From contig OZ024747.1 in NCBI GenBank assembly GCA_964016885.1, positions 67,208,001-67,272,000 of the forward strand: DNA of 64,000 nt. The letters are read 5' to 3'. Under the pieces are notes generated by a model. It did not search any database. It was given only the letters and a program-made list of their open reading frames with translations, and was not told the origin of the DNA. A program made the position numbers and the translations under genes. Below, piece after piece: positions 28,444 through 54,634 of the stretch. The stretch comes from Eledone cirrhosa (taxonomy: Eukaryota). Position 1 is the stretch's first letter, and every line of letters begins with the position of its first letter.

Positions 28444-29130
28444 ACATAATTTATAGTATATTGCTCTGATTATTTAATTTATTAATTCATCATTGAGCCA
28501 CATCGTGAATGGTTGCCGAAAACATATCTATAACTTTGTCTAGTTTGTGTATACGTAAATCTTTATATTTGATAATCTCCCATAATGTTGAGATGCAATT
28601 TGGGCAATATTAGTCTGCGCTTTCTAGCAACCAGCCTACTAGCCGTAAGGCACCAATCACATTCTTTCTGACTTGACCACTGCCACGTCACAGTTCTTAG
28701 CCATTTTGAATTCGTTTCTGGCGGGGATCATTTAAGAAAAATCTTTGTCCAAGTGAGTTTGTTTCTTGATGAGTTCGAAGCTCGAGAATTTATCCTTGAT
28801 AGGATATTTCGGAAAGCGAACGAAACCCTAAGGGTAGAAACGTATCCTGGTATGTGTATATTCATTTTTTTCTTCTAACTTTAATTTTATACCTAATTGT
28901 GTATGGTTGACGATATATTTAATCGATTTCCACGTGCTATTGAAATGATTTCAATGGCTGTTGATCGCGAATAAATGGGTATCGTTTGTTTATCTATTAT
29001 TTCTTCACAGGTGCCTTTTAATCTTATAGCCTGGTTTAATTGGTCTTTTGTGTGGTTGATTATGCTAATTGAGAGAGGAAATTGAGTATATATCTTATCA
29101 AATGATTCTAAGGACATAATTTATAGTATA
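28444..29130 (+). mobile_element. 670-bp non-coding hammerhead-containing unit with ~17-bp terminal redundancy, between (TA)n tracts
   Basis: ACATAATTTATAGTATA at 28444 and 29114; hammerhead at 28761. Confidence 0.6.
28761..28841 (+). ncRNA. Type I hammerhead ribozyme (C3U core variant, long stem II)
   Basis: GTTTC TTGATGA GTTCG..CGAAC GAAA CCC TAA GGG TA GAAAC: stems I, II and III all pair; GUA triplet. Confidence 0.8.
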
Positions 29131-29864
29131 TATATATATATATATATATACAACAGCTAAAGACCTTTTGAAGCCGTTTTCTCTGTTAAAGGAGGAATTA
29201 GATTTGTTTGATCCCATGACTGGCTTCATACTGATCATGGAGCCAAAGTTTATTCAGTCGTAGGCCATTCTGGCTGCAACTGTTTTAGCCGCCACTTACG
29301 CTACACGAGAATAAGGTGAATCTGTTTAAAACCAGATCCACTTCTATGTAGAGAGGCGGAGAGGGGGGAGAGAGAGGGGAAGAGAGATAATGGGGTAAGG
29401 AGAGAGAGGGGGAAGAGAGATAAAGAGATAAATAGATATATTTCTTTATATTCCACAAAGGCGCACAAGAAAAGGGGACAATACAAAGACATCTGGCGGG
29501 GATTTTACATACAACCGTGTAAAAAATTTTAACATACAAATTCAACGATAGAAATCCCCAATAGGGGGGAGGCGTTACAAATGGATAAATAAATAGATAA
29601 TTATACTTATTTAGATAGAGAGATAGAGAGATAGAGAGATAGATAAATGGGCAAAGAGAAAGAGAGGGAAGAGAGAGAAAGAGATAGATTGAGAGATATA
29701 TAAATAGATAATTATACTTGTTTAGATAAAGAGATAAAAAGATAGATAGATATATACATACATACTTACATACATACATGCATACATTCATACATACATT
29801 CATACATAAACACATACATATGTACGTACGTACGTGCATACATACATATATACATACATACATG

Positions 29865-30360
29865 GTGGTGGCTGTCAACTCGTTTTCGAGTACGGCCACT
29901 ACCTTATATCCATGTAGGAGAACCCCTACCGATGCGCTGAACGAGTGTGACTTTTTAGTCCAGCCAGCGACTTGAAAACGCTGGTACAAACACTACACTT
30001 GTGACAATTATTGACACATAGTTCTGGGCTCTTGGTACCATGTGATGACAAGTGCAGAGAGATCTCCAGATATAAAGCAATGCCTGTGCCATGAAGCTTT
30101 TATAGTGAGCAAAGGCACTGCACAAAGCCAGTCCCACTCTCTTAACCAAGATGATATTTACCAAAAAGAAGAACAAGTCAACATTATTGGATACCATCAG
30201 GGTTGCAGGTGTTATATCAGAGTTTTCCTTCTCCTAGAATTCTGCCTTGACAAACGCTAAGGGGTTATCTCGCCTGGTGATTTTGGATGGCTATTGACTC
30301 TTAAGAGCTCCTTTGCCCTTTGACAGGTTTTGTTTTTAGTCCTGCAGGATGTCCAAAGTC
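29865..30360 (-). mobile_element. Non-autonomous RTE-associated element / SINE-like repeat, related to 41970-42490
   Basis: Shares CTCGTT.TCGAGTA.GGCCA, AGCCA.TCCCACTCT, TTCTCCTAGAA..TGCC.TGACAAA and TTGACTCTTA blocks with 41970-42370. Confidence 0.5.
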
Positions 30361-30399
30361 ACCCTCCTCACCAAGAAACCTACATATATAGCTAGAACC

Positions 30400-50776: not shown

Positions 50777-51176
50777 TATATATATATATATATATATTGT
50801 TATACTTTGGGAGGGTCATGTTGCCAATAAGAAACACACGCACCAGTTGCTTTCACTTCAATTTATTATATATTTATAAATTTATAAATTTCTGGTTGGT
50901 TGGTTGGTTCCACAACCAGATAGTTGTTTAGATATAGTCATAGTTCTTTCGTCACACACTCTGTGACCTCTTCAGTGACTGGGGATTCCTTTCTTTGTTT
51001 CTGTGCCTCTCCTTTGTTCTGTCCTACGCCATTTTGTTTCTGTGTGTGTGTTGTGTGCTCAGTCTGCGCATGCGCCACATCCGGGTGTCTGTGTGTGTTT
51101 ATGTTCATTTATTTGCTTATTTACATGTTACTGGTTGGTTGTTTGTTCTATGTGTGTGTGTGTTTTCATTTTGTCC

Positions 51177-52323
51177 TTAATTGTAAGTTGTGATGTTGCT
51201 GTTCCACTGATATTTTCTATTTAATTTTGGTTGTAATTCTTTTATGTTTATTGCCTCTGTAATTTGTCTAAACATTGCGTCTTTTCTGTGTGTAGATTTT
51301 ATTTTTATTTCTATGTTCTCTAATTTACCCTTGTGTTCTATCTTAACATGTTGGTAGAGTACAGATGATTCTTTATTATCTTGAAGGTCTCGCCAGTGTT
51401 CATTTATCCGTTCCCCTACACTACGAGCTGTCTCACCTATGTACACTATATTTTTGTCTCTACATTGTCCTTCAGTACATCTTATGCTATACACTACATT
51501 TCTAGTTTTACAGTTAATATGGGGGCTTATTTTACAGGTTATACATTTCTTATCTATACATGAGGGTCTTTGAAAAGGGTATGTCTTGCTAATAAGTGTT
51601 TTTACGGAGGTACCTGGTCTTTCTATTATCTTAATATTGAGTTTATGTTTATTTAGGGCCCTTCTAAATTTGTAAGCTAATTCACCTCTAGGGGTTGTAT
51701 TGATGAACGTTACACTCTGGTATTTATTGCTATCATACCATGAGTTTATTCTATTAGCCTTGTTCCTAGTTCTTTCTATTCTATTCCATCCAAAATTTGC
51801 TCCTATACAAGGGGCAGGTCCCATTTATGTCATTATTTACCATTTTTTCCCATTTGGTTCTGGCTCCTCTATACACTCTGATTTTATCTCTCTGATTGTA
51901 GCCAGAGAACTGCATACGGTGGATGAAGTGTTGTATGTGTCTCTCTAGTTCTTCGGGGTTGCACATGCGGGACACATTTCTCATCACCCGTACCAAATCC
52001 GCAATCAGTATGTTGATTTTGGTATGGTCCGAAATGGCCGAGTTTCGGTGGATCAGATGTTTGGAAGTCATGGGTTTGGCATAATGCGAATGGAGGATTT
52101 GTTTTTTGTTGTTAATGGTATCTAACCAGAGCTCTGTGTCTAGTACAGGTAATCGATGGTTGGGGTGTCTACTTGGGTAGTCTATAGTAACTCTAATGCT
52201 CTGGTGGATGGAGTTTGCTATTTGTTGGATGCTTTCCATTGTGTTTTTCTCTAGTTCCTGACTGTTCTCTAGTGGGGGTGTCTTAACTACGATGTTTATA
52301 TCATCTACGTAGCGGGAGTACAT
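51177..52323 (-). pseudogene. 5'-truncated, frameshifted Penelope-like element (RT C-terminal half + GIY-YIG); different family from the Naiad-like pair
   Basis: RYVDD, LPVLD, YAKPM; NVVYSIRC..C..YIGETARSVGERINEH, RQITEA..I..PKLN; frame change near 51800. Confidence 0.85.
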
Positions 52324-53137
52324 TATCAGGGTTAAGGGGTCTTCTAAAGAATCTTGCTAAACAAATTCAGAAACGATATATATATATATATATATATATA
52401 AATAAATAAATAAATAGCTTAGAGTTTAGACTCAAAGAGGTCATTTACAATCATTTCAGCTCTAGGAATCGCTTCTGAGCAGTATAAATTAATATTTGAT
52501 GAACATTTACATGTTATAGTTGCAATTGACTAATAAGATCGCTAGAGTAAAAAATCTTAATTCAACAACATAAGGTCTGCCTGTACGATCTAGAAAATAA
52601 TAAATCAATACTCACAGACTCATATGGGCAAAAAGCCATTTATATATATATATAAGCCATTTATATATATATATATATGTATATATATATATTTATATAT
52701 ATATATATATTTATAAATTCCTAAATTTATAAATTTATTATACTCAATTGAAGTGAAAGCAACTGGTGCGTGTGTTTCTTATTGGCAACATGACCCTCCC
52801 AAAGTATAACAATATCGGTTTCAACACACGTTTTCAGATAAAGAATCTTGCTAAACAAATTCAGAAACGAAATATATATATATATATTTATATATATATA
52901 TATTTATATATATATATATTTATATATATAAATATATATATATATATATATATATATATATATATATATATATATATATATATATATATATATATATATA
53001 TATATATATATATATATATATATATATATATATATATATTTATATATATATATATTTATATATATATATATATATATATATATATATATATATATATATA
53101 TATATATATATATATATATATATATATATATATATAT

Positions 53138-54634
53138 AACGAAGGAAATGTGGTAAGGCACCAAGTGGACCATAACGCACCAAAGTACTCAATACTTAGG
53201 GTAGTAGAGTGGGTAATAGGAACGAGTAGGACCCAGACGGCTGAGCTCAAGCCGTTTCGACGGCTAATTCTGGACTAGATGAAAATTTTTTATCCTGGTA
53301 TATGAATAGCCGAGCTTCTCAAGGGGTAATTCCATATATGGTAAAAGTGATTGTCACAAGTATTCGTCAAAAGTTGGTTGTTGAGACACATAATTCTATC
53401 ATGACGCGGGGTGGTAGACAAGGGCTGTAACACCCCACTTGCCGACTTCGTAATGGGTAACCCCTGCTTGCAAAGGTAGACGTAAGATCTTCTTTTATGT
53501 CTTTTTATCGCTTCCTCTATATTTCCTTCTTCCCCCCATCCCTTCCTAGTCCTTCCACCCCAGTCCTCCTTCTTTGTCGTCGTCCTTTTCACTTTCTCGC
53601 CCACCCGAGGCAGCCCCTCGGTCCTTTGTAGCCTCAGTACCCCCACCCCATCCCCTATTCTATGATAGAATTGGCCGACTCCGCTTTTTATAGCAGATGT
53701 GATAGACCCCGGATACTTGCTTTCTTATCCGATGGCTGCCCCATTTCCGTGCTTTCTACATTTCTTAGTGGTATCTTTGCTTTAATTTCCCGTATATCAG
53801 TATTTATTTTTTGGGGGTATTCTGAATTAATTTTCCGTATTAATTTTTTCATATACTTCGTACGAGCATTTATGTAGTTTGCACTAGAATTTTTGTATCG
53901 TAGCGGCACCCTTAGAGATAGTATTAGTATTCATTTCCGGGATTCTGAATTATTATTTCGTATTAGTTTATTTTTTGCTCTGGGTGGTTGCTGGCCTTGT
54001 GCCTAGGGTAGAAACAATTATTTCGTATTAGTCTCGGGACTCTGAATTATTATTTCGCGGTAGTTTCTTTAGTATTTTGTCACCGTAAGATATACTCGGT
54101 TGATTACTACTAACTCTTAAAATGATCTCATTATAATTCCGTCCCACCTAGTAAATTTTCTATAGTTTAGCAGTACCAGTGAGAGAGTTGATGACTGTCG
54201 TTAGGGAATAGTAACCAGAAATTGTTTTTTTTTTTATACTTTTAACATTCTCGGTATTCTTCTATATATTTACCCCATATTGTTTTACTTATTGTTTCGA
54301 CTTCCTCCCCCTCCCCTCCCTAGTATACTTGCTTGACCTACTGCCCTGCTGTAGTTGGCACTATCAACGCACGACTGGGTTTCTTCCAACCCCTCTCCCT
54401 CTTTCTTCTACTGGCAGGTTCAGCTACCCCTTCCTTCCACAAATTGCCATGATAGAATTAAGTGTCTCAACAACAAACTTTTGACCAATCCTTGTGACAA
54501 TCACTTTTACCATATATGGAATTACCCCCTGAGAAGCTCGGCTATTCATATACCAGGATAAAAATGTTCATTTAGTCCAGAATTAGCCGTCGAAACGGCA
54601 TGAGCTCAGCCGTCGGGGTCCTACTCGTTCCTAT
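53138..54634. mobile_element. Non-coding element with ~185-bp inverted repeats (53217-53403 / 54449-54634), each with a hammerhead-like fold
   Basis: ACCCC CTGAGAA..CGGCTA..TAGCCG TC GAAAC GGC..GCC GTC GGGGT at 54524-54619; mirror at 53231-53327; TA flanks. Confidence 0.65.

Follow-up and report, generated by a model that had tools for sequence, protein, structure and literature searches.

The window analysed here comprises 64,000 nucleotides of the Eledone cirrhosa genome (assembly GCA_964016885.1, contig OZ024747.1, positions 67,208,001 to 67,272,000 of the forward strand); all coordinates below count from its first nucleotide. Between positions 28444 and 54634, it contains six non-coding units named after their lengths (U670, U557, U1275, U551, U467, and U533), accompanied by fold-back stumps and broken Penelope-like elements (PLEs). 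An intact PLE of the Hydra clade lies beside this cluster (Table 1). A first inspection of this DNA, hereafter the original prediction, had interpreted the units as hammerhead ribozyme RNAs that cleave themselves to monomers or circles and are copied by a Penelope or Naiad reverse transcriptase (RT).

To determine the unit boundaries, the window was compared to itself by BLAST after masking of simple repeats, and the matches were refined by exact-match and pairwise alignment. The six units shared no BLASTN similarity with one another at E < 1e-3. None of 270 PLE proteins, a query set consisting of Hydra-like and Neptune-like proteins only, matched the units at E < 1e-3, and the two coding regions used as controls were matched by 153 and 126 of these proteins. 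The longest ATG-initiated open reading frame (ORF) in the units has 97 codons. U557, U1275, U551, U467, and U533, and the inverted arms of the first four, adjoin a (TA)n or (GA)n/(TA)n tract. The proposal of six mutually unrelated, ORF-less units was borne out.

Each unit was also predicted to occur with a partial repeat of its start. Such a partial tandem, resembling the pseudo-long terminal repeats (pLTRs) of PLEs, is present in U557, U1275, U551, and U533. It is weak in the two remaining units: the one reported as 466 bp long measures 467 bp and overlaps itself by 20 bp, and U670 has a direct repeat of just 18 bp, partly TA. This short repeat could be a target duplication, and the tandem nature of U670 is doubtful. 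An inverted, 5'-truncated copy beside the 5' end, expected for four units, was recovered by alignment in U557, U1275, U551, and U467. Family B has such a copy as well, and it is absent from U533 and U670. A relative of U551 (70% identical) lies at 52483-52631, in a segment inserted in (TA)n at 52409-52645.

Table 1. Features of the PLE and hammerhead cluster (window coordinates)
Feature	Position	Strand	Description
Intact Hydra-clade PLE	12640-24331		11.7-kb palindromic insertion flanked by (TA)n at either end
Minimal type I hammerhead in Hydra pLTR	12777-12822	-	found by descriptor scans
ORF for RT and C-terminal GIY-YIG	15032-17521	-	829 codons; second copy 19544-22033 (+)
U670	28444-29131	+	single non-coding segment; lone hammerhead of the U3 variant with core 28766 and cut after 28836
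Family B fold-back stump	37494-37774		both arms end at the long site
U557	37830-39136	-	557-bp unit (37830-38386), 458-bp overlap, inverted arm 38845-39136
Family A (Neptune/Nematis-type) fold-back stump	39157-39371		offset 60; belongs to the broken PLE at 50797-52377
Solo 3'-end fragment	39824-40085	-	minimal hammerhead remnant (predicted at 39915), core 39945, 2-bp helix I; by eye
Fold-back stump	41244-41631		two identical minimal hammerheads, cores 41440 (-) and 41531 (+)
Family B fold-back stump	44120-44348		ends 19 and 101 nt past putative cut (offset 82)
U1275	44931-47180	-	1275-bp unit (44931-46205), 817-bp overlap, inverted arm 47033-47180 (= 46128-46275)
U551	47718-48576	-	551-bp unit (47718-48268), 161-bp overlap, inverted arm 48426-48576
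U551 long-end piece	48649-48702	-	54 bp, fused by 5-of-6 microhomology (48697-48702) to the U467 inverted arm
U467	48697-49498	+	467-bp unit (49012-49478), 20-bp overlap, inverted arm 48697-49013
U467 hammerhead	49159-49203	+	type I; cut after 49196; mirror copy 48776-48820 (-)
Old fold-back element	49668-50070	+	decayed hammerhead (predicted at 49783), core 49787-49793, two core changes; by eye
U533	50136-50774	+	533-bp unit (50136-50668), 106-bp overlap; inverted arm absent
Broken PLE, family A	50797-52377	-	5'-truncated, frameshifted, Neptune/Nematis-type; 35-bp inverted arm; offset 60
Family B	53139-54634	+	1229-bp non-coding direct arm; inverted arm 53139-53403

Two descriptors together identified 10 complete type I hammerhead motifs at six loci in 28444-54634 (cores at 28766; 38087/38644; 41440/41531; 45048/46323; 48813/49166; 50975), and neither descriptor caught all ten. 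The first detected 11 cores in 8201-64000, compared to a mean of 0.1 in 30 block shuffles. The second, which was tuned after inspection of the sequence, detected seven cores in 28444-54634, compared to a mean of 0.04 in 25 shuffles. A relaxed class with one or two core mismatches was dropped, as its 21 matches (shuffle mean, 9.0) were mostly AT-rich noise; it did not recover the motifs predicted at 49783, 50171, and 54524.

The hammerheads predicted at 28761, 41391/41526, and 44980/46255 are present. Those of U1275 are minimal and have an imperfect helix II base (cuts after 44985 and 46260), and the pair at 41391/41526 belongs to a pure fold-back stump without a tandem unit. Two of the earlier calls had to be revised. 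The U557 motifs at 38001/38558, described as degenerate, proved complete with a long helix III when the second descriptor was used (cuts after 38008 and 38565), and the 467-bp unit, in which no hammerhead had been seen, carries a complete one in both orientations. U551 yielded no hammerhead with either descriptor, in agreement with the prediction. Among the motifs called degenerate, those at 39915, 49783, and 54524 look like plausible remnants on visual inspection; U533 shows core boxes only (50171), which are unconvincing. The hammerhead-like motif of family B (54529-54535), likewise judged by eye, has a U3/C3-A8 core, with G8 replaced in the copy at 54524 and U3-A8 in a sister copy.

A type I hammerhead is located near the 3' end of U557, U1275, U467, U670, and the stump at 41244-41631. 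Two complete motifs stand in direct tandem in both U557 and U1275, each of which spans less than two full laps, and U467 and U670 have one direct motif. In the covariance-model check with Rfam suggested in the original prediction, U467 was the only locus in the window with a ribozyme match (HH9; E 6e-6, with 37.7 bits against a gathering score of 52, which it thus did not reach); Rfam aligned none of the other hammerhead loci, and the other Rfam matches were microsatellite or hairpin noise. Further hammerhead-like remnants were noted at 24400-24760 (a family-B-like helix III near 24424 and a motif with a 2-bp helix I at 24675) and at 63941-64000, where the motif is cut off by the window end.

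The intact PLE consists of a direct arm at 12640-18554 (minus sense, period 4954) and an inverted arm at 18551-24331. It shows the same layout as the short units, namely unit, partial repeat, and inverted arm. Its ORF contains RWR, DKT, CxCx5C, CxxC, and CxH motifs, which are common to 112-118 of 120 homologues, and an Asn-rich repeat insert between the RT and endonuclease (EN) domains. Named relatives of the protein occur in Solemya and Argonauta, with 43% identity across 56% of the query length. Pfam returned no family for this ORF or for three PLE fragments, apart from a lone weak TonB_2 match below the cut-off. The pLTRs contain four hammerheads in all; beyond the one listed in Table 1, the cores lie at 17772 (-), 19293 (+), and 24243 (+). 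Judged by motifs and homologues, the element is a member of the Hydra clade: the RWK-like and DKT motifs, CxCx5C linker, CxxC and CxH, C-terminal GIY-YIG, hammerhead, and (TA)n target fit the published description. According to the available sections of PMC8557442, which also describe these motifs, the Hydra clade targets (TA)n and has hammerheads in its pLTRs. Only 10 of 3975 columns distinguish the two bodies of the palindrome; the element is thus apparently young, and it offers a candidate enzyme for in vitro experiments. A second, 5'-truncated Hydra-type ORF, approximately 42% identical to the intact one, was found at 56916-58097.

To describe the insertion geometry, we selected 14 head-to-head two-armed insertions from the self-BLAST, leaving out fold-backs that resemble short interspersed nuclear elements (SINEs) and have no TA borders. 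In seven of the 14, the 3' ends of the two arms are offset by 77-96 nt. These seven represent six sequence-unrelated families, including the autonomous Hydra PLE (offset 90), U557 (88), the 41244 stump (~96), family B (82 and 77), U1275 (78), and U551 (80). Two further insertions, both of family A, have an offset of 60. Relative to the cut, the arms end 141 and 51 nt downstream in the Hydra PLE, 178 and 266 nt in U557, 54 and 132 nt in U1275, and ~152 and 56 nt in the 41244 stump; in the family B element at 53139-54634, the corresponding distances from the putative cut are 20 and 97 nt. The tail at one end only that is known from PLEs is therefore present here and longer than the published 30-40 bp. 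The simplest reading of these offsets is one start site per strand, with a spacing wider than the published 30-40 nt.

One lap of U1275 (45748-47022) was compared with four public sequencing runs. In run X1, 2824 contigs matched U1275 and covered 30 of 30 bins. Summed contig depth, which does not equal copy number and comes from a run that is possibly not independent of the assembly, formed a plateau of 1,059-18,303 outside 46135-46478 and reached 130,916-239,587 over 46135-46306. It rose about tenfold at the long end (46135), close to where the inverted arm of our locus ends (46128), and a second time immediately beyond the short end (46206), and it showed no dip at the nominal unit seam. A contig joint also led from 47022 back to 45748, a step of 1275 nt, at a depth of 117.5, and two similar joints had depths of 32.4 and 15.3. 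All five opposite-strand joints listed from runs X1, X6, and X8 have one side in 46219-46285, at the hammerhead. Run X8, from another sample with the same species label, contributed 2512 reads over 29 of 30 bins; it was obtained by restriction site-associated DNA sequencing, so its read ends follow restriction sites. The small-share runs X5 and X6 gave just 12 and 4 contigs. The run search, made with one stretch, listed no RNA run, which speaks neither for nor against expression. Exact-pattern scans of metagenome contigs with the U1275 tail and the U467 hammerhead gave zero matches each. The depth plateau round the whole unit and the self-closing and inversion joints in the reads reveal U1275 as a multicopy, ORF-less, self-closing family that is repeatedly inverted at the hammerhead and exists mostly as short stumps. 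The original prediction would have failed if every unit were only the 3' end of an autonomous Penelope element; U1275 is instead multicopy as a whole unit and closes on itself.

The sequences of the arms provide clues to the template. The two direct copies of U557 are identical over 204 columns and the inverted arm differs from them at four positions plus two indels, so this arm likely derives from a second RNA molecule. Neither U551, with four variable sites each private to different copies, nor the U1275 arm, with one edge difference in 150, is informative on this point. In the Hydra pLTRs, two of the four variable sites among 565 columns group the outer versus the inner copies, a pattern more in keeping with a linear RNA carrying two distinct pLTRs than with a circular monomer. 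The inverted arms start 15 nt (U1275) and 28 nt (U557) upstream of the cut and 237 nt downstream of it (U467), which rules out that they begin exactly at the cut site. As the U1275 and U557 arms begin upstream of the cut, the template was intact there.

Related observations have been reported for the Poseidon element PAc of Anolis, whose protein cuts and extends both target strands in vitro, starts reverse transcription at two adjacent internal sites that define the tail, and uses unprocessed RNA (PMC11167929, Frangieh et al. 2024). The elements described here would resemble PAc in having two internal start sites past the hammerhead, extension of both strands, and an uncleaved RNA substrate. 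PAc differs in that it belongs to another clade and its sites are 30-40 nt apart, and its assays were made without inverted arms or non-autonomous substrates.

Taken together, we consider it probable that the units are non-autonomous PLE-type elements and truncated PLE ends that are copied in trans by a PLE RT-endonuclease. In the proposed mechanism, the enzyme would nick both strands of a TA tract, and each nick would prime cDNA synthesis from either of two internal positions past the hammerhead, ~80-90 nt apart (60 nt in family A). The first cDNA would read an uncleaved RNA longer than one unit and thereby give rise to the unit with its overlap. The second cDNA would usually be short, would often stall in the ribozyme fold, and might use another RNA molecule; joined head to head with the first, it would yield the inverted arm. 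The layout, the hammerhead motifs, the spacing of the arm ends, and the multicopy, self-closing nature of U1275 are direct observations. We infer the trans-mobilization, the identity of the enzyme, the two-primer mechanism, and the linear template from these footprints, and we regard the Hydra clade as the most likely enzyme source for the 77-96-nt group.

The predicted Penelope/Naiad mobilization can accordingly be kept for PLEs, with U1275 as the best example of a PLE-mobilized non-autonomous unit, and is unlikely to hold for Naiads where the hammerheads are concerned. Their hallmarks (N-terminal GIY-YIG, DKA, and no canonical hammerhead) were not found in the PLE ORFs of the window, which have a C-terminal EN and hammerheads. 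Naiads are described in the available sections of PMC8557442 as lacking canonical hammerheads and as present in cephalopods as remnants, yet with the PLE layout. They are unlikely to be the source of the hammerheads, because they lack canonical ones and are remnants in cephalopods, and because the PLEs of the window are Hydra-type and Neptune/Nematis-type.

Several observations weigh against mobilization in trans by a PLE enzyme. No short unit resembles the autonomous elements of the window by BLASTN, and a partner sharing their 3' end was not found there. The U1275 hammerhead region is 10-100 times deeper than the rest of the unit and may be shared with an unseen autonomous partner, and the evidence from beyond the window covers U1275 alone among the units. 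With respect to the geometry, five of the 14 insertions fall outside the pattern (offsets 0, 0, 133, 216 for the fused U467 arm, and 331), and the 77-96-nt bin was picked after the data had been seen. The Hydra allele pattern comprises two sites and could be mimicked by arm-to-arm conversion. Finally, the U557 overlap fails to reach the long start site by 11 nt, as a one-off re-initiation would also explain; if so, such re-initiation would be a route to new tandem units.

According to the first alternative, a circular-RNA retrozyme cycle, transcripts would be cut to monomers and ligated to circles, which the PLE RT would copy more than once round. All arms with a hammerhead run across the cut site, so their template must have been uncleaved or re-ligated, and the direct tandems of complete motifs in U557 and U1275 would suit such a cycle. 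Circular RNAs have been shown for coral, mussel, and axolotl retrozymes (available parts of PMC7229834). The best case at the locus is U467, whose hammerhead is of the canonical type, with a 7-bp helix I bearing an extension and a palindromic helix III; it aligned to HH9 over its full length and, alone among the units, departs from the minimal or variant form. The motif forms in the predicted fold of the unit, the inverted arm wraps across the unit seam, and the folding z-score is -10.1 as a linear molecule (100 shuffles) and -9.8 as a circle, spread over four sub-regions (z -2.5 to -4.7). The corresponding circular values are -1.1 for U557, -1.6 for U670, -2.4 for U1275, -3.0 for U533, and -4.9 for U551, the latter being owed largely to one duplicated hairpin. 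We rejected the folding z-score as proof of circular RNA. Although 25 of 26 control windows scored above -3.8, the remaining one, a coding stretch of a long interspersed nuclear element (LINE), reached -12.1 on re-test and thus exceeded U467; the score is therefore not specific. This stretch of 467 nt lies in a Tx1/L1-like LINE coding region (62000-62600), in which 200-nt windows reached z-scores as low as -6.9; an older copy of the 3' part showed no such excess over shuffles.

The circular cycle appears unlikely. U551 and the Naiads share this layout although neither has hammerheads, the U557, U670, and U1275 monomers are not strongly self-paired as circles, and the Hydra pLTR alleles suit a linear template with two pLTRs. 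Moreover, eight of nine predicted Xenopus retrozymes were not cleaved in vitro and one was, as stated in the accessible part of bioRxiv 10.64898/2026.07.22.740005. The original prediction had read the unit with its overlap as the product of copying round a circle or a tandem transcript. PLEs normally consist of a partial tandem, an inverted 5'-truncated copy, and a 30-40-bp tail at one end (PMC8557442 and PMC3846280, available parts of both). Since the autonomous Hydra PLE and published PLEs share this layout, the architecture marks PLE integration and not by itself circles; the circle inference thus receives no special support.

A second alternative, ordinary debris of autonomous PLEs, appears quite unlikely as the explanation of the units. 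Here, the RT would start near the 5' end of a full-length RNA, run off or truncate, and re-initiate, leaving one-off stumps. This is likely true for the family A stumps, whose parent ORF is in the window, for 41244-41631, for the fragment at 39915, and for family B, and it is possible for U670, U533, and U557. The items at 41391/41526, 39915, 49783, and 54524 as well as U670 and U533 appear indistinguishable from ordinary truncated PLE ends. Most U1275-like copies in the reads are hammerhead-proximal stumps, as debris would be. In contrast, the depth plateau round the whole U1275 unit and the self-closing joints in other copies speak against this explanation, as do U551 and U1275, in which 310-380 nt devoid of coding remnants separate the long site from the seam and the end of the overlap. 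Fold-back duplication of DNA at (TA)n cruciforms or an assembly artefact, either of them unrelated to retrotransposition, is highly improbable and has been largely refuted for U1275 by independent reads. Long (TA)n tracts do abound in the window, and overlapping palindromes follow one another over 47718-49498, among them an identical 54-bp pair round one TA tract. However, the arms differ (at up to 6/80 and 10/188 columns), their ends recur at positions specific to each family, the reads and contigs of three runs contain inversion joints, and hammerheads are far above chance.

Within the framework of PLE mobilization, U467 is the best candidate for a true retrozyme and, by its predicted fold and motif, likely a genuine one caught with the same footprint. 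Its inverted arm is fused to the U551 long-end piece, either by a template switch or by a later U551 insertion that deleted the arm end. A more speculative extension, to which we give rather little weight, is that one Hydra-type RT-endonuclease dimer with start sites ~80-90 nt apart serves a guild of unrelated RNAs, comprising minimal-hammerhead elements, U551 as a structured RNA without a hammerhead, and U467 as a true circular retrozyme, and that the fusion arose by template switch. If true, the fusion would be a direct footprint of retrozyme integration by PLE enzymes, with arms primed separately on separate RNAs.

The mobilization of retrozymes by PLEs is known as an idea. Cervera & de la Peña (2020; PMC7229834, available parts) defined animal retrozymes and named PLEs as their likely mobilizers, and Li, Clavereau & Pollet (2026; the accessible part of the above preprint) argued that vertebrate retrozymes are non-autonomous PLE derivatives. 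An earlier study (PMC4209133, in the sections available) described pLTRs with minimal hammerheads, pairs of motifs on opposite strands at distances of 100-700 bp, and a U3-A8 variant, and it proposed circles as templates. The link has so far been based on co-occurrence and pLTR similarity. The present locus sets an intact, apparently young Hydra PLE beside unrelated substrates with matching end geometry, which makes retrozyme mobilization and the origin of the inverted repeats testable. The footprints add locus-level support and do not define a new element class; what goes beyond the known framework is the footprint of U467, together with a two-site spacing that is wider than published and recurs in unrelated RNAs. 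We found no paper on cephalopod non-autonomous PLEs, on an 80-90-nt tail, or on a retrozyme with a PLE inverted arm in a search that left most subscription papers and Repbase outside. An octopus repeat annotation lists 31 recently active Penelope-like families, and the word "ribozyme" is absent from its available text (PMC13282606).

Compared with EN+ Hydra-clade PLEs (Craig et al. 2021, PMC8557442, available sections), the locus shows the same layout, tail, (TA)n target, and pLTR hammerheads, whereas the units have no ORF and their offsets are 77-96 nt (60 in family A) instead of 30-40. Furthermore, the intact element has a period of 4954 bp, whereas less than 3 kb is called general for Hydra in those sections. 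With animal retrozymes, the units share non-coding, low-GC type I hammerhead repeats and, in U557 and U1275, two motifs in direct tandem. Measured against a retrozyme criterion of ~150-450 bp per monomer and GC < 50%, all six units have a GC content of 0.32-0.41; U467 is borderline in size, and the others range from 533 to 1275 bp. U467 fits retrozymes in hammerhead type and self-pairing and approximately in size. Unlike retrozyme arrays, the insertions are dispersed, span 1.0-1.8 laps, have inverted arms, mostly contain minimal PLE-type hammerheads, and are known from DNA alone. U1275 is longer than reported retrozymes (51-972 bp, from a search limited to period 1000), and U551 has no hammerhead. 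Non-autonomous PLEs have already been published for Chlamys (MRC1; PMC8557442, sections available) and Heliconius (PMC6685494, likewise in part). Those elements are also ORF-less, with pLTRs and head-to-tail copies made by PLE machinery, but they resemble an autonomous partner at the 3' end, which was not found here, and most of the Chlamys elements are without hammerheads. Our observations suggest that many "unknown" or fold-back elements resembling miniature inverted-repeat transposable elements (MITEs) in such genomes may be PLE products.

In the broken family A PLE, the ORF is followed by a hammerhead with its core at 50975 and its cut after 50941. The ORF has a CX4CxxC linker (Neptune/Nematis type), which is shared by 140 of 150 homologues. 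A HMMER library search with this ORF gave 2592 matches, and a search for longer proteins with its C-terminal part found none. A plausible ORF start in the family A tail (52757-52872) resembles, by eye, the N-terminus of homologue P0183; compare the RT start inside the ORF in PAc. In an inverted-repeat element at 27421-28426, both arms end at the same point and no hammerhead was found; it may be a MITE or a PLE product.

Microsatellites of the types (TA)n, (CA)n, and (GA)n abound in the window, which also contains a 12-bp satellite at 1-6891 (~574 copies, 92% matches). ARAGORN detected no tRNA in the 64 kb. SINE-like repeats occupy 9802-12250, 25751-26869, and 42359-43481, with several fold-backs (10033-10224, 42359-42636). 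An uninterrupted LINE ORF of 1045 codons (32427-35564) encodes an apurinic/apyrimidinic endonuclease and an RT (Pfam Exo_endo_phos and RVT_1), is preceded by a Gln-rich open frame, and lies between (TA)n tracts. The 3' ends of Tx1/L1-like LINEs at 59189-63585 are arranged as a head-to-tail tandem (period 1715, 99% identity over 888 bp) in a (CTAT)n-type microsatellite, together with older copies.

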